This document shows positions 2,134 to 20,903 of a stretch of 64,000 bases of DNA, in pieces. How positions within the stretch are numbered: the first letter of the stretch is position 1; the number at the start of each line of letters is the position of its first letter. Origin of the DNA: Opitutaceae bacterium (GTDB lineage Bacteria; Verrucomicrobiota; Verrucomicrobiia; Opitutales; Opitutaceae); assembly GCA_015075305.1 (NCBI GenBank), contig JABTUS010000004.1, positions 238,679-302,678 of the forward strand. Direction: 5' to 3'. The translations under genes and the position numbers were made by a program. The notes below the pieces were generated by a model. That model was not told where the DNA came from, did no database searches, and saw only the letters and a list, made by a program, of their open reading frames with translations.

Positions 2134-4944
2134 TCAGATCGTCAGGGTGCTGTGGAGCGTGTACTGGCCTGCCAGTGCATCGCAGACGGCGAAACCGCCT
2201 ATGCGCTCCGAGGCGGAGAGTCCGTCGCAAACGACTTCGGTGTCGGGATCGCTCGGCAGAAAAATGCGGGCGCGGGTGTTGGGGGGAATCACGACCTTCC
2301 ACTCAAAGGAAGACCCCGCAAGCTTCCAATGGCTGAGAATTTCACCGTGCGGACAGCGATAGTTCACGTTTGCAAAATCGAGCCCTTTGCCCGGCCAGGG
2401 TTTGAGCACGAAGCGTTCGAACCCGGGAACCTTAGGATCGAGTTCGATGCCACCCACATGGCGGAACAGCCACTCCCCGACGGAGCCGAGCGAGTAGTGG
2501 TTGAAGGAATTCATCTGAGGATTGAAGAACCCATCCTGATGCGTCCAGCCGTTCCACCTCTCCCAGATGGTGGTCGCGCCGTGCCGGATCGGATACAGCC
2601 AGGACGGATATGACTCCTGCAGCAGGAGCCGGTAGGCCACGTCTGCATGGCCGGTTTCCGTTAGCACAGGGTTGAGGTGTCCGATGCCGATGAAGCCCGT
2701 GCTGAGATGCCAGTCGAGATCGCGGATGAGACGAACCAGATGTTCGGCGGCCTTGGGTCGATCGGATTCCGGCAGGAGATTGAAGGCCAGAGCGAGGAGA
2801 TAGGCCGTCTGAGTTTCGACCGTGAGCCGGCCGTTTTCACCGAGGAACTCCTTCTGGAATGCCTCGCGGACCTTGACGAATACACGAGTGTGGCGCGCTG
2901 CGTCCTCGTCTCTTCCCAAGGCATGTGCCATCACCGCCATCTTTGCCGCGTCGTCCGCCCAGTAGGCCGTCGCGAGCAGATTCTTCATCGGCGAGTGTGT
3001 TCCAAAACTCGTGTCGGTGGGAATGCAGAGCCAGTCGCCGTAGTTGTGCCCGAGCTGGTTGACGCGCAGATATCCCGGATTGTTGTCCTCGATCCAGTCC
3101 ATCCATCCCTCCATGGCCCGCCAATGGCGCTCCATGATGCGCCGGTCGCCATAGACCCGCCAGATCGTCCAGGGGACGATGATGCCGGCGTCGCCCCAGC
3201 CAGCCGCGCCACAGAGGTTCCCGAGACCGGCATAATTTTCGCCATCGCGCAGGCGCGGTGCGATGTCAGGGAAAATGCCCTCGGGCGTCTGCGCGTCGTC
3301 GACGTCGATCATCCACTTGGTGAAAAATGCCGCGACGTCTTTGTTGTAGCTGGCGGTGCGAATGAACACCTGTGCATCGCCCGTCCATCCGAGACGCTCA
3401 TCGCGCTGGGGGCAGTCGGTGGGGACGGACAGAAAGTTGTCGCGCTGCGACCAGACGCCATTCAGCCAGAGGCGGTTCACGCCGGGGTGGGAACATTCGA
3501 AGCTGCCGCCGGGTGGAAGCACGGAGTGGATCACGCAGGCAACCGCCGCATGGGAGGGCGGTGCACTTGGCAGGCCTGTGATTTCCACGTATTGGAATCC
3601 ATGAAACGTGAAATGCGGCTCATAAACCTCATCGGCATCGCCTCCGCGGCAGGTGTACACGTCGGTCGCCTTGGCCTGTCGCAGGTTGTCGGTGTAGAGC
3701 GTGCCGTCGGGATTCAGGCGCTCGGCGTGGCGCAGTCTTACGACGGTGCCTCTGGGAGCCCTGACCGCCAGGCGGATCCATCCTGAGATGTTCTGCCCGA
3801 AGTCGAGGACGTGAACACCAGGTGCAACCTCATTGGAGGAGATGGGGACAAGTTCCTCGGTGATTCTCACGGGCCCGGCACGCTGCGCGACGAGGGGTGC
3901 AGCCGGGGCGGAAACCTCCCGGGCCTGCAGCCAGGGCAGTGACGCCAGGAGCTCGGGAGAGGGGCCCGGCGCCTGTGTTGCCGCCGCGACCGGCAGCAGA
4001 AGTGTGGTGTCCTGTTCGCGACGGGCGTCGTACACCTCGCCCATCATGAAATCGGAGGAGAGAATGGGGCCTGTGTGACACTGCCAGGTGCGATCGCTTT
4101 GGACGACGACCGTGCGGCCATCGGACAGCTCCATTTCGAGTTGCAGGAGAAAGCTGTTTTCCAGGGATCCGTACCGTGCGCGGGTTTCCTGCCAGCCCAC
4201 GTATCCGCTCCACCAGCCGTCGCCCAGCGTCACCTCCAGCCAGTTTCGGCCTGCGTGCAGCGAAGTGGAGACTGAGTAGGTGCGGAAATGAATGCGTTTG
4301 TCGTAGTCGGTCCACTCAGGAATGAAGAGATCGGGGGTGAGTGGCCTGCTGTTCACCCGAACATGGACCAGTCCGCGCGCGCTGATGTAGAGCGTCGCCC
4401 TCGTGACATCGGCGGAGAGATCGAATCCGCGGCGAAAGACTCCAGGGGTGCCCGATGCGGCCAGGGAAGGAGCGATGGCTGCGGGGTCCCGCGTGATGGT
4501 TTCGGGATCGGCGGCGATCCAGCGGGCGTTCCAGTCCCGACGGTCGAGCAGTCCCATGGTCCAACTGGCGGGCTCTGATCGTGCGGATGCGTCAGTTTCG
4601 TCCCAAATCTCCACGTGCCAGTGGCAGGCATCGCGCGACTCCAACGGCCGGCCCTGGTAAACGACATGCTGGGTCTGAGGGCTGTCGACCCGGCCTGAGT
4701 CCCATCGGTCCGCGGGCCCGGTGAGAAGCTTTTCCAGACTGCTCGCGACGCGAATCCGATACGCGCGCTGGCGGGCGCCCTGGCGGCTGGTGACGAGATT
4801 CCAGCTCAGTCGCGGCGCGCGTTCGTCAATGCCGAGCGGATCGACGAGATATTCGCAGCGGAGGTTGGCAATGCGCGTGGGCGTTTCCATGGGACGGGGA
4901 TTGAAGGCTTCCATGCGCGGACTCCCGGGTCGAGAGCGATGCAT
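2134..4944 (-). CDS. alpha-L-rhamnosidase (glycoside hydrolase family 78)
   Basis: 936-aa ORF. N-terminal IANLRCEYLVDPLGIDERAPRLSWNL and catalytic-domain DCPQRDERLGWTGDAQVF are characteristic GH78 strings. No obvious signal peptide. Alternative in-frame ATG starts lie 10 and 18 codons downstream. Confidence 0.9.
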   Translation of the reverse strand: MHRSRPGSPRMEAFNPRPMETPTRIANLRCEYLVDPLGIDERAPRLSWNLVTSRQGARQRAYRIRVASSLEKLLTGPADRWDSGRVDSPQTQHVVYQGRPLESRDACHWHVEIWDETDASARSEPASWTMGLLDRRDWNARWIAADPETITRDPAAIAPSLAASGTPGVFRRGFDLSADVTRATLYISARGLVHVRVNSRPLTPDLFIPEWTDYDKRIHFRTYSVSTSLHAGRNWLEVTLGDGWWSGYVGWQETRARYGSLENSFLLQLEMELSDGRTVVVQSDRTWQCHTGPILSSDFMMGEVYDARREQDTTLLLPVAAATQAPGPSPELLASLPWLQAREVSAPAAPLVAQRAGPVRITEELVPISSNEVAPGVHVLDFGQNISGWIRLAVRAPRGTVVRLRHAERLNPDGTLYTDNLRQAKATDVYTCRGGDADEVYEPHFTFHGFQYVEITGLPSAPPSHAAVACVIHSVLPPGGSFECSHPGVNRLWLNGVWSQRDNFLSVPTDCPQRDERLGWTGDAQVFIRTASYNKDVAAFFTKWMIDVDDAQTPEGIFPDIAPRLRDGENYAGLGNLCGAAGWGDAGIIVPWTIWRVYGDRRIMERHWRAMEGWMDWIEDNNPGYLRVNQLGHNYGDWLCIPTDTSFGTHSPMKNLLATAYWADDAAKMAVMAHALGRDEDAARHTRVFVKVREAFQKEFLGENGRLTVETQTAYLLALAFNLLPESDRPKAAEHLVRLIRDLDWHLSTGFIGIGHLNPVLTETGHADVAYRLLLQESYPSWLYPIRHGATTIWERWNGWTHQDGFFNPQMNSFNHYSLGSVGEWLFRHVGGIELDPKVPGFERFVLKPWPGKGLDFANVNYRCPHGEILSHWKLAGSSFEWKVVIPPNTRARIFLPSDPDTEVVCDGLSASERIGGFAVCDALAGQYTLHSTLTI

Positions 4945-15913: not shown

Positions 15914-16264
15914 TCAGGGTCGTTTCCGCCTGTTTCTCTTGTCCAGCAGCACCACGACGGGTTTGTGCCGCCTCGCCTCGTCCGGCTCAAAGTCGGCATA
16001 GGCCGCGATGATCACCTCGTCTCCCGGCTGCACGAGCCGGGCCGCGGCACCGTTGATCATGATCTCGCCGCGCCTGCGCCCGCCGATGACGTACGTGGCG
16101 AAGCGCTGGCCGTTGGTCACGTTGTAGATTTCCACGCGCTCGTGGAGGAGAAAACCGGCGGCGCGGCGCAGTTCGGGCGCGATGGCGATCGAGCCCTCGT
16201 AGTTGATGTCCGCGGCGGTCACGGTTGCGCGGTGGAGCTTGGACTTCAGCAGTGTCAGACGCAT
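15914..16264 (-). CDS. panD: aspartate 1-decarboxylase
   Basis: MRLTLLKSKLHRATVTAADINYEGSIAI (pyruvoyl-forming GS site). 116 aa from the internal ATG at 16264. Confidence 0.92.
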   Translation of the reverse strand: MRLTLLKSKLHRATVTAADINYEGSIAIAPELRRAAGFLLHERVEIYNVTNGQRFATYVIGGRRRGEIMINGAAARLVQPGDEVIIAAYADFEPDEARRHKPVVVLLDKRNRRKRP

Positions 16265-16271
16265 GGCGGGT

Positions 16272-17054
16272 TCACCCGGCGGATTCGCGGTTGATGAACT
16301 CGGCGTGTTTGAGGCCGTACAGCACAAGTTCGGGCACGATCTCGTCGAACAGGCTCTCGGACTCGAACATCCTCGCAAAGCCGCCGGTGCCGATGACGTG
16401 CGGACGCGTGCCGTTGAACGCCTCGATCATGAGCACGGATATGAGGTTGTGGATCGCACCGACATGACCGTGATAAAGGCCCGCCTGGATGCTTTCGACC
16501 GTGCTGCGGCCGAGCGCAGCCTCCGGACGGGCGATTTCAACCGAGGGGAGGCGAGCAGTGCGGTTCGACAGCACCTCGGCCGAAATGCCGAGCCCGGGCA
16601 GGATCGCGCCGCCAAGGTAGTCACCGCGGCCCGAAACCACATCAAAGGTCGTGGCCGTGCCGCAGTCCACCACGAGGCAGTTTTCGCCGGGGCGTCGCAG
16701 CGTGGCCGCAATGGCGTTCGCGACCCTGTCGGCCCCGACTTCGGCGGGATTGCGGTACTTGATCTTCAATCCGGTTTTCACGCCGGCCTGGAGAAGGAAG
16801 GGCTCGCACTCAAAGTATTTCACGCAGGCCGCGCGCAGCGGATAGGCCACGGGCGGCACAACCGAGCAGATGGCGACGCGTTTCACGTCGACGGGGTCGA
16901 TCCTGTTCTCACGCAGCACCGCGCGGAGAAATAGGCCGACCTCGTCGGATGAGCCGATGGGGTGGGTGGTTTTTCGAAACTGCACGCGCAGCGCGTCTCC
17001 GTCGAAGACACCGCCGTGGATCTGGGAATTGCCGACATCAAGGGTCAATAGCAT
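16272..17054 (-). CDS. coaX: type III pantothenate kinase
   Basis: [28 protein letters not shown], 260 aa. Confidence 0.92.
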
Positions 17055-17517
17055 GGTAAGGGAAGGTTGAAAGGTTGAGCCGGTGCGTCAGTTCCGGAGC
17101 CAGTGCATCGCGGGCCGCGTAGCGTGCGACGATCGATATGGCATGCCGGCGGATGTCGGCGGGAAACGCTCCGTCAGCGCGCTGTTGAGACCGATCGTTG
17201 GGCACAACGTGCTCCACGCCATCGCAGGCGGTGAGCATCACCAGGGGCTGCCGCTCCTGGCGGGCCCATTTGAATGCAGGGATGCTTTTCATTCCGCCCC
17301 GGCAGTTGTCCGTGAACGGAGAACCTGCTGGCGGCGGAGTCGGGTCAGAAGTGCTTGTCGCATGGCGATCAGGCCTGAAAGTTTCGGAAACGGTGATTTA
17401 ACGGTGCGGTCCGGTCGCGCACGAGTTCGCGCCGGACGCTGACAAACATTGCAGCCCGGCCATCCCGCGCAACGAAAATTCGCCGTGCGCTTACGGGCCG
17501 CGGCGCTCCCACCCGGC

Positions 17518-17585
17518 GTGGCACAGGCGTCCCGCCCGTCTGAAAGTCCGCGCCCGACTCCGATGTGGCACGGGCGTCCCGCCCG
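17518..17585. repeat. two copies of a 21-nt GC-rich direct repeat (GTGGCACRGGCGTCCCGCCCG), each with a GGGCG-TCC-CGCCC mini-hairpin
   Basis: Copies at 17518-17538 and 17565-17585 differ at one position. They lie in the non-coding stretch downstream of the intI stub. Confidence 0.6.
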
Positions 17586-17632
17586 CGAGTCCTGCACACC
17601 AGCGCCCCCCCCATGTCGCGAAATCACCCTGC

Positions 17633-17812
17633 TCATGCGTCCAGCGGACTCCGCACACCCAGCCCCAGTTTTTGCATCACAGGGGTGTAGATCCGCATGG
17701 TTTCCAGCCGCTCGTGCCCGAGCGGTTCCTGCACTGTGCGATGCGTCGCGATGGACGCTGTTGTCGAGGTGGACAAGAAGACCGCCTTCCATTCCGGAAA
17801 GTGAACGGGAGA
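17633..17812 (-). pseudogene. intI: integron-integrase (IntI) C-terminal stub, N-terminal ~260 codons missing
   Basis: Hand translation: [59 protein letters not shown]. This matches the IntI tail pattern SFATH..RTVQ.LLGH...TTMIYTHV....GVRSPLDA, with an internal deletion and no start codon or N-terminal domains. Confidence 0.6.
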
Positions 17813-17868
17813 GGAAGAATCCTTCCTCCCGCAAAGCCAAACCGACTCGAGCTTTTTGCCGCGGCTTC

Positions 17869-17929
17869 GTTCAACCAGCCGCCCGAGCCAACGGCCCCAA
17901 GCGGCCGTGGCTCATCTTGAACGTTGGGC
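17869..17929 (+). repeat. attC-like repeat A (61 bp)
   Basis: Begins GTTCAAC (fits RYYYAAC) and ends GTTGGGC (fits GTTRRRY). Imperfect dyad GTTCAA/TTGAAC, AGCC/GGCT, ACGGCC/GGCCGT. Shares an 18-nt identical block CGTGGCTCATCTTGAACG with repeat C. Confidence 0.45.
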
Positions 17930-17972
17930 AAGTCCAAGTTGCCATTTACGGCACTGGGATCATTTTGAGCAC

Positions 17973-18188
17973 ATGATCGAGTTGGATCATTCACCAGTAT
18001 CTTCCTCGCCAGAAATTTTGGGCGGGACGCTAGTTTTCGCCCGTACGCGTGTTCCCGTGCAGTCGCTGATCGATTATCTTCAAGACGGATTTACCGTGAA
18101 CCAGTTTTTGGAGTTTTTTCCGTCGGTTCGCAAAGCCGATACGGAGAGCTTCTTGCGAGGATTGATGGTCGGTTTGATGTGTTTGTGA
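17973..18188 (+). CDS. DUF433-family antitoxin-like protein (C-terminal tail read out of frame through a toxin remnant)
   Basis: MIELDHSPVSSSPEILGGTLVFARTRVPVQSLIDYLQDGFTVNQFLEFFPSVRKADTESFL matches the DUF433 pattern (GG.pv..gTRvPV..l...l..G.s..eil..yP.l). ATG at 17973. Confidence 0.65.
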   Translation: MIELDHSPVSSSPEILGGTLVFARTRVPVQSLIDYLQDGFTVNQFLEFFPSVRKADTESFLRGLMVGLMCL

Positions 18189-18352
18189 TCGCCGACAAGA
18201 ACATGCGCTACCAGCAGAGCCTTTCGGGGCGTACTATCGCCATCGTCGAGCTGCCGACAAATCGTTGGCCAATCCTGCAATCGATCACCCAGAAGATAGT
18301 GGCGGCGGTCGATTCCGCACAGCCGGGCGGTTATGTTGTCGTTGAGGAGTGA
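18143..18352 (+). pseudogene. C-terminal half of a PIN-like (DUF5615-type) toxin, N-terminal half deleted
   Basis: Frame +2 reads GELLARIDGRFDVFVIADKNMRYQQSLSGRTIAIVELPTNRWPILQSITQKIVAAVDSAQPGGYVVVEE*. As I recall, the F.V..T.DKN.RYQQNL.GR.IAIV.L motif belongs to the toxin normally encoded downstream of DUF433. There is no N-terminal domain or start codon, and it overlaps the DUF433 ORF. Confidence 0.5.
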
Positions 18353-18356
18353 AACG

Positions 18357-18442
18357 GCCCAACCTCCAGTGAAGCAGGCAGCGAGGAAGTGAGGCGGTGG
18401 CGGGAAAGAGGCTGATACGAGCCGTCCAAATCACCGTTGGAC
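18357..18442 (+). repeat. attC-like repeat B (86 bp)
   Basis: Begins GCCCAAC (RYYYAAC) 5 nt after the toxin-remnant stop and ends GTTGGAC (GTTRRRY). The two cores are near-complementary. The 3' part GAGGCTGAT...GTTGGACGAAG resembles GTGGCTCAT...GTTGGGCAAG of repeat A. Confidence 0.35.
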
Positions 18443-18758
18443 GAAGTCGTCGGGGGGTGAGGCATCGATCTACAGGGAGAAACCTGCCGCTGGGCACTGG
18501 GGAGCGGACGGTCGAAAAGGTCCGGGGAAATTTGCGCGAGCTCGGGTTAAGCATGTTCATCGCGGGAAATTTTCACTGACAGGCCGGGAAGCGGAGCGTT
18601 TGGGTTTTTATGGGAGTGAAGGAGATGGAATGCGTGAGCGGTTCCGCAGGCGATGCCAGAGTGGACGCGAGTCGCATATGGAATCATTTCCGAGTATAGG
18701 AAGACAGAGCGTTGGGTTGTAACCATAGTCCACTTCAAGGATCACCTGACGAACAATC

Positions 18759-18821
18759 CGCCAACCAGAGCCGCCAGAGCCGGCACCGCCAACGCGTCGT
18801 GGCTCATCTTGAACGATTGGC
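18759..18821 (+). repeat. attC-like repeat C (63 bp)
   Basis: CGCCAACCAG... at the 5' side and ...CGTGGCTCATCTTGAACGATTGGC at the 3' side. It is clearly homologous to repeat A (shared CAACCAG and identical 18-mer). Core sites are degenerate (GATTGGC instead of GTTRRRY). Confidence 0.4.
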
Positions 18822-18899
18822 AAGAAGCATGAAGAGGTTCCATTTTGCGACCGCTTGGTTCCTGACGGTGGATTTTCCAGTCAATTCAGCAACAGCACA

Positions 18900-19388
18900 C
18901 TAGCGTTGGAAACGATAGGTCGTGTTGAATATCAATTCGATCCTGGGGGTCACAAAGACGCGGACCTTGATCTTGCCGGCGAGGGAATCGGCTGGGACGG
19001 CCCGGCCTTCGATTCGCCGGGGTTCGCCCTTGGTGTTTTGTGCTCGACCTGAAAATGGGACGGTTTCGCCGGCCGCGAGGCGTGCAAAGGTGTTCTCGGG
19101 AAGATCGATCGTCAGGCTGCCTTTTTCGTTGTAGAAAAAGTAGGGGAAAACCTTGGTGACATAGGTTCCCTGAAGCGTCCTGCCATCGCAGGCGAGCGGC
19201 GGCATGCTGAGCGAGACGGATCCGATATAGATCGATGTGCGCGCCTTCTCCACGATCACCGTGCGCGGCAGAGTGACTGCGGCGGATGCGGAGTCTGTCG
19301 CGGACGGTTGCCCGGCCGATCGAGCATTGTCCGGCTGGATTAACAGGAGCAGGCAGGCTGATCCGAAGAGGGCGGTCCGACGAGGCAT
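18900..19388 (-). CDS. hypothetical secreted protein (162 aa)
   Basis: Internal ATG at 19388 gives [25 protein letters not shown] (signal-peptide-like) followed by a beta-rich sequence with host-like codon usage. I recognise no family. The longer 370-aa track ORF is antisense to argH. Confidence 0.5.
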
Positions 19389-19499
19389 CGGGTGATGCTG
19401 GAGGGGTGGGCAGGCTTTCGCAAATGCCATCTCCACGCTGTTCCGCACGCGAGATTTCGCGTTGCGCATCGGGACCCTGCAATTTCTGCTGTCATCCTT

Positions 19500-20903
19500 A
19501 TGGCCAAGCAATCTCAGGCGACATGGGGTGGGCGGTTTTCGGCAGCGCCGGCGGAGCTCATGCTCCGCTTCAGCGAAAGCGTGTCGTTTGACGCGCGCCT
19601 CGCTCCCTATGACATTGCCGGAAGCCGGGCGCATTCCGCAATGCTTGCCCATGTGGGCCTGATTTCTGAGGCGGAACGCAACGAAATCCATCGCGGTTTG
19701 GATGAAATTGAAAAGGAGATCGCCGACGGAAAGTTTACCTGGAGCATTCAACTCGAGGATGTTCACATGAACATCGAGCAGGCCCTGACCCGCCGGGCGC
19801 CCGCGGCCGCAAAGCTTCACACGGCGCGCAGCCGGAATGACCAGGTGGCCACCGACATGCGGCTTTGGTTCAAACATGCCTGCATGGTGCTCGTGGAGAA
19901 GCTGCGCGGCGCCCAGAGAGCGCTGCTGACGGTGGCCGAGCGGGACGGAGGCGTGCTCATTCCGGGCTACACCCACCTTCAGCGCGCGCAGCCTGTTCCT
20001 TTCGCGCACCATCTTCTGGCCTGGATGGAGATGCTCGACCGCGACGTGGAGAAGTTTGAATCCGTGCGCTCGCAGGCAAACTGGTGTCCCCTTGGATCAG
20101 GGGCCATCGCGGGCACCACGCTGCCCATTGACCGCGAGTACACCGCGAAAGCGCTCGGGTTTGTTGACGAAAAGGGGCGTCCCCGGGTGACGCGCAACTC
20201 GATGGACACAGTGGCGGATCGCGATGTTTTCATTGCGTTTGCCGGCGCCTGCGCGATGGCGGGCGTGCACTTCTCACGCATCGCCGAGGACCTGATCATT
20301 TGGTCGAGCATTGAATTCAAGTTCATTGAACTGCCTGACGCCTTTTGCACCGGCTCCTCGCTGATGCCCCAAAAGAAGAACCCCGACTCCTGCGAACTGC
20401 TTCGCGGAAAAGCTGCACGCCTGCAGGGGAATCTTCACACCCTGCTGACTCTGGCCAAGGGGCTTCCGCTTACCTACAACCGCGATCTTCAGGAGGACAA
20501 ACCACCCGTGTTTGACAGCTTTGACCAGACGGCAATGTGCACGGATGTGCTGGCAGGCACCCTGGGCGGAATGCAGTTGGTCAGGATGCGCTGTGAGGAG
20601 GCGGTGAAGGACCCGCTCCTGCTCGCCACGGACCTTGCGGACTATCTCGTGATGCAGGGGGTGCCGTTTCGCGAGGCGCATCACGCGGTCGGCGCCGTCG
20701 TCAAACTGGCGGAGGAGAACAATGTCCGCCTCGATCAGCTTTCAACGGAGTCGGTGCAGGGCATTCATCCGAAATTTGGCAGGGACTGGGCGGATGTCTT
20801 TGACCTGAAGCGCGCGATGGCGATGCGCGGCGGTACTGGCATGCCAGGGCCGAGTCAGGTGAGGAAGCAGCTCCTCCGGTGGAAGAATTTGCTGGGCGGA
20901 TAG
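19500..20903 (+). CDS. argH: argininosuccinate lyase
   Basis: [46 protein letters not shown], signature [12 protein letters not shown]. Confidence 0.93.

Follow-up and report, generated by a model that had tools for sequence, protein, structure and literature searches.

Very probable remains of a chromosomal integron between coaX and argH in an Opitutaceae genome, and the attC family to which its sites belong

We analysed the gap between coaX and argH in a 64-kb stretch of DNA from an Opitutaceae bacterium (contig JABTUS010000004.1; the whole stretch is called the window, and positions given with no locus label refer to it). Positions 17633-18899 are very probably the fossil of an Opitutaceae-type chromosomal integron, and the 1.3-kb unannotated coaX-argH gap is thereby explained as the leftover of a lost gene-capture system. 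The first-pass annotation, made from the sequence alone, had proposed a wrecked chromosomal integron that comprises an intI remnant, attC sites and a divergent toxin-antitoxin cassette, and this core claim was supported. A complete integron has a functional intI together with an attI and one attC site or more. Because intI is gutted and attI is absent here, the locus belongs to the attC-site clusters that have no integron integrase (CALINs), in this case with an intI pseudogene, and it is no longer able to act alone.

The features of the locus are listed below. Scores of attC sites refer to the covariance model R1, labels such as L043 denote genome or metagenome loci fetched for comparison, and homologue searches covered 161 loci.

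17633-18899, both strands: decayed integron remnant between coaX and argH, with the intI stub on the minus strand and attC sites and cargo on the plus strand
17633..17812, minus: intI pseudogene; C-terminal ~35-40 codons (17636-17740) and stop codon (17633-17635), in frame with a probable N-terminal relic
about 17777-17809, minus: probable intI N-terminal relic of 11 residues, in the same frame, upstream of the C-terminal homology
17813..17868, minus: remnant of the region 5' upstream of intI, with left inverted-repeat arm GAGCTTTTTGCCG, ending in an IS91-family terminus
17859-17875: terminal 17 nt of an IS91-family element, CCGCGGCTTCGTTCAAC, at the left edge of site A (17/17 match to L043)
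17868..17931, plus: attC site A (R1 86.6 bits, E 2e-25)
17973..18188, plus: cassette 1, DUF433 (antitoxin-type) open reading frame (ORF) of 71 aa (PF04255, E 2.4e-12, 46.9 bits)
18179..18352, plus: cassette 1, 57-codon ORF fragment overlapping the end of the DUF433 ORF
18357..18442, plus: repeat B, with R''-like GCCCAAC and R'-like GTTGGAC end boxes only
18677..18748, plus: cassette 2, C-terminal relic of a ParE-family toxin, last 24 residues, YGIISEYRKTERWVVTIVHFKDHL
18759..18823, plus: attC site C, degenerate (R1 46.0 bits, E 4e-12)
18824..18899, plus: stub of a third cassette, with the family-typical start ...GGCAAGAAGCATG and a 24-codon ORF

The intI stub and the attC sites of the window

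The translation quoted in the first-pass annotation for the minus strand from 17812 to 17633 was recovered as an exact match in the window sequence. The last ~38 residues of this stub match the integron integrase model TIGR02249 of NCBIfam with an E-value of 4.9e-8 (32.7 bits), at profile positions 277-314 of 315; the score is far under the full-length cutoff of 265 because these positions alone remain. The XerC model gave 17.7 bits, and the XerC, XerD and XerA models of NCBIfam all fell at 16-18 bits, which makes the stub a better match to IntI than to XerC/D. At the DNA level, positions 17637-17740 are 70-80% identical to the intI 3' ends of six relatives (L009, L058, L038, L018, L032 and L074). 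Alignment by tblastn to full-length IntI proteins showed SFATH, a gap of eight residues, then RTVQELLGH and a shared 10-residue C-terminal motif; the gap lies where an LLxxGYDI segment had been reported missing, and that observation was correct. About 330 internal codons and the 8 codons of LLxxGxDI have been lost from the stub, and the HxxR catalytic box is gone. Of the catalytic residues and boxes (R, K, HxxR, H/W, Y), the stub retains the LGH histidine and the tyrosine region (RIYTP) and no others; all that preceded SIATH is deleted, and no IntI-specific extra helix is left. Since the HxxR box and everything upstream of it are missing, the stub is a pseudogene; judged by profile scores and DNA identity it is the remnant of an integron integrase, of IntI type rather than XerC/D.

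The stub had been described as a C-terminal end with no N-terminal codons. Its C-terminal identity stood; the wholly missing N-terminus did not, as ~12 N-terminal codons are probably kept, which makes the lesion an internal deletion. With a hidden Markov model (HMM) of the lineage IntI N-terminus, the spot of the 11-residue relic ranked third in the six-frame window (E 0.28), and the relic codons were recovered by DNA alignment to two relatives (p 0.016 and 0.08). About 30 nt further upstream, GAGCTTTTTGCCG resembles the left inverted-repeat arm that L032 and L074 have equally far from the start of intI. The apparently retained N-terminal codons and part of the intI upstream region are the grounds on which we read the lesion, with fair confidence, as an internal deletion of about 330 codons and not a 5' truncation.

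For the attC sites we used the covariance model R1, which was built from 47 copies of the repeat with no window sequence included. Applied to the window, R1 found nothing above noise beyond A and C, and these two sites are members of the Opitutaceae attC family described in the next section. All four end boxes of A and B were present where the first-pass annotation had placed them (GTTCAAC at 17869-17875, GTTGGGC at 17923-17929, GCCCAAC at 18357-18363 and GTTGGAC at 18436-18442), as were the box sequences of C and the two copies of the 18-mer CGTGGCTCATCTTGAACG common to A and C; no further copy of this 18-mer exists in the 64 kb beyond those at 17906 and 18798, with 0.01 occurrences expected by chance. 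A and C share 79% identity across 56 nt. Site A is near the family consensus in its L stem, bulged base, unpaired spacers and R' box (GTTGGGC); the 5' half of its R'' box has been replaced (GTTCAAC, not GCCNAAC), and its R stem is reduced to 5/7. Site C keeps the family core; its L stem is weakened, a spacer is 1-2 nt longer and its fold z-score is -1.3. The end boxes of C are CGCCAAC (R'') and GATTGGC (R'), the latter without the canonical GTT.

The proposal of three attC-like repeats therefore held for A and C, which are supported by the model, and not for B, which was undetected: R1 gave no match to B at E<=10 with filters off. Imperfect dyad symmetry, claimed for all three, is evident in A and weak in C; it is not seen in B, whose fold is no better than that of shuffled sequence (z-scores +0.3 and +0.6). 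When A, B and C were folded with their flanks, the R stem was absent from the minimum-energy structures, because flanking bases compete; when the exact sites were refolded, a typical family member and the L stem of A took the expected shape, and B did not. Box pairs of the B type are expected by chance about 3.3 times per 64 kb and about 0.02-0.04 times within the A-C interval. The GCCCAAC of B is the exact complement of the R' box of A (GTTGGGC) and lies 4 nt past the cargo stop codon. It is possible, if somewhat doubtful, that B is a relic of the attC site of cassette 1. No significant homologue of B, of cassette 1 or of the stretch behind C was found in the 161 loci.

The cargo lies between these sites. 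The DUF433 domain predicted for the A-B interval was confirmed (E 2.4e-12), and the interval, oriented divergently from intI, is probably the remnant of a toxin-antitoxin cassette. In cassettes of this type a PIN-like or DUF5615 partner comes after the DUF433 ORF. A 'PIN-like' label given to the second ORF of this interval was not upheld: the 57-codon fragment matched neither PIN nor any other family in Pfam, NCBIfam or PADLOC. It may be the truncated toxin partner of the DUF433 ORF. In cassette 2, whose ORFs matched nothing in Pfam or PADLOC, the ParE relic is 58% identical over 24 aa (pairwise E 3e-6) to a protein of L033 with a PF05016 ParE_toxin match (E 4.2e-14); in-frame stop codons lie upstream of the relic, and the space is too small for an antitoxin gene. 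The stub of the third cassette runs into the stop codon of a convergent 189-aa gene beside argH. There is no intact cargo gene, the DUF433 ORF possibly excepted, and no cassette promoter was identified in the island.

The attC family and integrons of relatives

Sites of attC type are recognised by terminal inverse boxes, R'' (RYYYAAC) and R' (GTTRRRY), and by an imperfect hairpin with an extrahelical base. One pass of the 18-mer over 185,579 species genomes returned 75 loci, labelled mostly Opitutaceae, Opitutales or other Verrucomicrobiota. The 61-nt consensus of the copies is GCCNAAC-CAGRCGCC-AGAGCCAACGGCC-loop-GGCCGTGGCTC-ATCTTGAAC-GTTNGGC. A variant of ~100 nt differs solely by a longer terminal hairpin, and behind sites of either length there is usually AAAG...ATG with a new ORF. 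The family structure has an R stem of 7 bp and an L stem of 11 bp with a single bulged base, separated by unpaired spacers (9/9 nt), and a variable loop, owing to which sites of the whole family span 54-141 nt. Folding of the bottom strand of a typical member gave an R stem that leads through a 9/9 internal loop to an L stem, which has one bulged T and closes in a loop. The 18-nt core is 100% identical in isolates and metagenome-assembled genomes (MAGs) labelled Oleiharenicola, Lacunisphaera, Ereboglobus, Didemnitutus, Horticoccus, Nibricoccus and Opitutus. A scan of 15-22 kb of the window against Rfam, which holds no attC model, gave chance matches only at E<=10.

In addition to the window copies, R1 recognised 217 sites in 68 of the fetched loci. 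Among these, 145 lack the exact 18-mer and are thus independent of the way in which the loci were retrieved; 72 of the 81 occurrences of the 18-mer fall inside sites recognised by R1. All sites within a locus are on the same strand (68/68 loci), with a median spacing of 491 nt and as many as 16 sites in 8 kb. Most frequent among the R'' boxes are GCCTAAC, GCCGAAC and GCCCAAC, and among the R' boxes GTTCGGC, GTTAGGC and GTTGGGC. The alignment had been fitted to R1; within it, pairing is kept in 90.9% of cells and two-sided changes occur in 12 of 18 pairs, values reached by none of 500 shuffles.

The arrays also carry the mark of cassette recombination. IntI cleaves between the G and TT of R', so that each cassette starts with the complement of the R'' that ends it, and the match expected for the R' of site i is with the R'' of site i+1 and not with that of site i itself. 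The variable base was complementary in 95 of 120 R'(i)/R''(i+1) pairs, compared with 50 of 162 R'/R'' pairs of the same site and 42 of 110 reverse-neighbour controls; for all six bases the respective counts were 91/149, 31/217 and 32/149. Complete integrons are present in at least seven Opitutales genomes, the cultured Oleiharenicola lentus among them, and seven full-length IntI genes are divergent from the arrays, with a conserved attI (GAATAACACTG|TTnGGCAAA; the motif is also written AATAACACTGTT or GAATAACACTGTT). The IntI of Oleiharenicola lentus (L074, gene at 2744-3991 of that locus) scored 367.7 bits against TIGR02249, for which the curated cutoff is 265. We concluded from the crossover signature, the divergent full-length IntI and the conserved attI that the arrays of this family are integron cassette arrays.

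Classical IntI proteins have about 320-340 aa. Those of the Opitutaceae (L074, L007, L032, L038 and L058) differ in having 415-440 aa, with an N-terminal extension of ~100 aa that starts with M..P(I/V)SFPxWKxAL. A protein search with the N-terminal 140 aa of the L038 IntI returned 19 proteins, mostly fragments. In the intact system of the relatives, the divergent IntI would recombine the folded attC strand with attI (GAATAACACTG|TTnGGC), and cassettes of ~0.5 kb would accumulate behind attI, each closing in a 61-nt or ~100-nt attC. Taking these data jointly, we tentatively put forward, as a reading that is possible though slightly less likely than not, that the near-uniform attC type of Opitutaceae and some other Verrucomicrobiota represents a shared, actively exchanged cassette pool, with extended integrases and an IS91-family parasite driving decay, and that the window is one casualty.

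Three observations on the family loci can be added. Dense arrays of 11-16 attC sites per 8 kb are found in the 8-kb loci L015, L028, L070 and L044, of which L015 is on a 928-kb contig. The Opitutaceae attC type also occurs in loci binned elsewhere (L070, Candidatus Paceibacterota; L037, Bryobacteraceae; L045, Dehalococcoidia), which points to mis-binning or to cassette transfer between phyla. In L032 (minus strand), an attC at 476-577 with the R' box GATCGCC is followed by a site at 29-101 with the exact complement, GGCGATC, as its R''; these boxes suggest that cassettes remain movable when the crossover has GAT instead of GTT.

Decay of the locus and alternative readings

The locus sequence is 100% identical to the window in three independent assemblies (ENA and two Logan runs). 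Over 16000-20000, identity is 100% both for L001 (a 324-kb contig from ENA) and for L002 (87 kb, from Logan), and L004 is identical up to its own end. A protein search with the 59-aa stub gave a single match, the same ORF in an NCBI Opitutaceae MAG, in which a 430-kb contig is annotated with the same 47-aa stub ORF. The locus is thus a real Opitutaceae (Verrucomicrobiota) sequence and no assembly artefact. Its neighbours coaX (Pan_kinase) and argH (Lyase_1/ASL_C2), as named in the first-pass annotation, were verified by domain matches. The GC content is 0.53-0.55 within the island vs. 0.60-0.66 in the flanks. Among 80 metagenomic relatives with CoaX 65-90% identical, none has attC, intI or argH in the 10 kb around coaX. 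Island and coaX-argH adjacency are specific to this lineage and mark a gene-order breakpoint. A conserved coaX-argH gene order was ruled out on the same 80 coaX relatives, which show no such order.

The junction between the stub and A was compared with the intI-attI intergenic regions of L032, L074, L038 and L009. The attI motif AATAACACTGTT was not found between the stub and A, and the left border of A was ruled out as an attI, the lineage motif GAATAACACTG|TT being absent there. The R'' box of A (GTTCAAC) is preceded by GCGGCTT, a variant confined to L016, L043 and L069 among the 217 sites. In L016 and L069 a GTTCAAC-type attC adjoins a 2.5-kb element (at 312-2802 and 3143-5633 in L016 and about 666-2835 in L069); in L043 the contig ends at the junction, and the terminal sequence of the element alone is visible (1-39). 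The element encodes an IS91-family transposase (324 bits, cutoff 125) and, upstream of it, an IntI-like tyrosine recombinase (182 bits, under the cutoff of 265). Its left end is GCGGCTTNGTTCAAC, with an inverted copy near the right end, which closes in ...GGGTTCG. Outside the window, GCGGCTTNGTTCAAC was seen only at attC sites that abut the element, and in the cases seen the element is always at the R'' box of an attC, with GCC replaced by GTT. From the shared junction we infer that an IS91-family element was formerly inserted at A.

The decay may then have run as follows. An IS91-family element targeting attC R'' boxes would have inserted at A; a later deletion would have taken attI, any upstream cassettes and nearly the whole insertion sequence (IS), and additional deletions would have gutted intI and the cargo.

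Several points weigh against this reading of the locus as an integron fossil with such a past. Membership of the attC sites and the stub rests on the lineage-specific R1 and on TIGR02249, not on the generic attC model and the intI_Cterm profile of IntegronFinder. B is not recognisable as an attC, which leaves the number of cassettes uncertain. The IS scar is 17 nt long, with a BLAST E-value of 0.08. The N-terminal relic comprises ~11 residues with an HMM E-value of 0.28, and its DNA alignment is not significant against two other relatives. The deletion history is likewise a reconstruction, for which no direct observation is possible.

Among other explanations the best survivor, itself unlikely, is that the array is alive, A and perhaps C still serving an intact IntI in trans, encoded at another place in the genome, as a small cassette reservoir. 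Site A has kept its whole L stem and bulged base together with a canonical R', and it might still be recombinable if another part of the genome encodes an IntI. Cury et al. 2016 (PMC4889954) point out that integrases accompany many CALINs, which could be mobilised, and the match of a GAT-type R' by the next R'' in L032 (GATCGCC then GGCGATC) means that the GATTGGC of C need not be fatal. However, the cargo is pseudogenised, the R stem of A is down to 5/7 and the L stem of C is weakened, no intact intI was found within the 64-kb window, and the identical sequence in three assemblies leaves no visible cassette turnover.

It is very improbable that the stub derives from a generic XerC/D, a phage tyrosine recombinase or the IntI-like recombinase borne by the IS91-family element, the attC sites then being a CALIN that an integrase from another part of the genome had inserted at a secondary site. 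Such an origin would fit the small number of diagnostic residues (~38), the weak Pfam Phage_integrase match (E 0.038) and the position of the IS91-borne recombinase, which adjoins the GTTCAAC-type attC of L016 and L069 and points the same way as the stub. It does not fit the 10-residue C-terminal motif and the 70-80% DNA identity that the stub has in common with true IntI genes, nor the advantage of the integron-integrase model over all Xer models. The IS91-borne recombinase as source was ruled out, as its C-terminal end differs (...VIYTHLTAVSEDKAF...) and it aligns to the stub only at E 6.7.

More improbable still, A and C would be a dispersed repeat unrelated to integrons, resembling repetitive extragenic palindromes (REP) or miniature inverted-repeat transposable elements (MITE), or the conserved 5' end of a gene family read through the minus-strand ATGAGCCAC. 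The 18-mer is widespread, its minus strand has an ATG, and several differences between A and C are synonymous in one minus-strand frame; but the ORF from that ATG has about 14-21 codons and ends inside R'', the copies lie in single-strand arrays beside TIGR02249-positive IntI genes, variation tracks base pairing and not codons, and neighbouring sites carry the cassette crossover signature. The copies in the arrays of relatives showed the repeats to be cassette boundaries and not conserved gene 5' ends, a doubt that had been raised in the first-pass annotation. A minus-strand coding explanation of the A/C similarity (LPxVQDEPR...) was ruled out by the structure-driven variation in the 217 copies.

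That the juxtapositions (intI N::C, panB::coaBC and coaX-argH) are chimeric assembly artefacts is scarcely credible: metagenome contigs do break in or near the region (L003 at about 17344, L004 at about 18429, also L005 and L006), but L001 and L002 match the window throughout 16000-20000, L004 does so to its end, and the NCBI MAG has the same stub ORF on its 430-kb contig.

Known integron systems and neighbouring features

Sedentary chromosomal integrons with homogeneous attC sites are exemplified by the superintegron of Vibrio cholerae and its VCR repeats. The arrays of the relatives (L015, L028, L070 and L044) are similar in their many small cassettes, closely similar attC sites and toxin-antitoxin cargo, and the relatives also have a divergent intI and an attI ending in GTT. 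They differ in that the attC family spans many Opitutaceae genera, not one species, and that the integrases have the ~100-aa N-terminal extra; the window itself is a remnant. In Xanthomonas, degenerate chromosomal integrons at ilvD were reportedly described by Gillings et al. in 2005, with intI inactivated by frameshifts, deletions and IS elements. The window resembles these in its fixed chromosomal site between housekeeping genes, decayed integrase and remaining cassettes; phylum, attC family and insertion site are different, and none of the 80 relatives of the window has an integron at coaX. Known invaders of attC sites are the IS1111-attC group and the group IIC-attC introns, and ISCR1 (IS91-like) is found beside class 1 integrons. 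The Opitutaceae element is comparable in that the IS occupies the same position at the R'' box in L016, L043 and L069, with the same junction borne by A of the window. It differs in being of the IS91 family with an IntI-like tyrosine recombinase, not an IS110/IS1111 element or a retro-intron, and in the R'' change from GCC to GTT.

The closest counterpart is the CALIN with an intI pseudogene. In the survey that defines CALINs as attC clusters without an integron integrase, an intI pseudogene neighbours 15 of 279 CALINs (Cury et al. 2016, PMC4889954). As in those cases, the window contains two or more attC sites on the same strand, no functional integrase and an intI C-terminal remnant within a few hundred bases, and the interpretation is also alike, namely loss of intI from a once-complete integron (PMC4889954). 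The window differs in that the remnant abuts the first attC, attI is deleted, an IS91-family scar lies at the junction, and there are two demonstrable damaged sites.

The first-pass annotation had taken integrons to be poorly documented in this lineage. This was overstated and only partly so: Verrucomicrobia are already among the integron-bearing phyla listed by Cury et al. 2016 (PMC4889954), whereas the attC family is undescribed in the literature found. Our search for integrons together with Opitutaceae or Verrucomicrobiota gave no description of the present attC family and almost nothing on integrons in Opitutaceae. The window element thus belongs to a known, already published category (Verrucomicrobia integrons; CALINs beside intI pseudogenes), and the family-level attC picture may be new. 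A uniform Opitutaceae attC family with long arrays, and an attC-targeting IS91-family element carrying an integrase-like gene, should be useful for the annotation of verrucomicrobial MAGs, and both finds for studying the build-up and destruction of sedentary integrons; the current understanding of integrons is not overturned.

Deletion at the locus extends beyond the integron. Upstream of coaX, an 84-aa ORF at 17038-17292 (minus strand) consists of PanB residues 1-24 fused to CoaBC residues 348-421, and the fusion is identical in independent assemblies. As the gene order in the relative L084 is panB-panC-coaBC-coaX-panD, the comparison indicates that ~2.7 kb, most of panB-panC-coaBC, has been deleted at the window locus. 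The locus underwent at least four or five separate deletions, and this separate loss of panB-panC-coaBC argues for a general deletion bias.

Two further features lie near this deletion. A non-coding leader of ~150 nt upstream of panB (17293-17470, minus strand) has 70-82% DNA identity in 38 of the 80 relatives, with CoaX identity down to 65%. It contains long invariant blocks, GUCUAGCGCGAAC.CGAUCGCGACCGGAC and GAGGCUUCAUCGCCAUGCGAAAAGCAC (aligned with L084, L087, L088 and others), and a 24-codon upstream ORF, MR(Q/K)A...; in 21 of 31 sequences the stop codon of this ORF and the start codon of panB overlap. The leader gave no Rfam match and little covariation by RNAalifold; its conservation makes it a candidate regulatory leader of the pantothenate/coenzyme A operon, here stranded before the deleted operon. 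Directly downstream of the intI stop codon, two copies of GGCAC(A/G)GGCGTCCCGCCCG, 47 nt apart, lie within 17513-17596 (plus strand), and no further copy was found in the window or in any other fetched locus.

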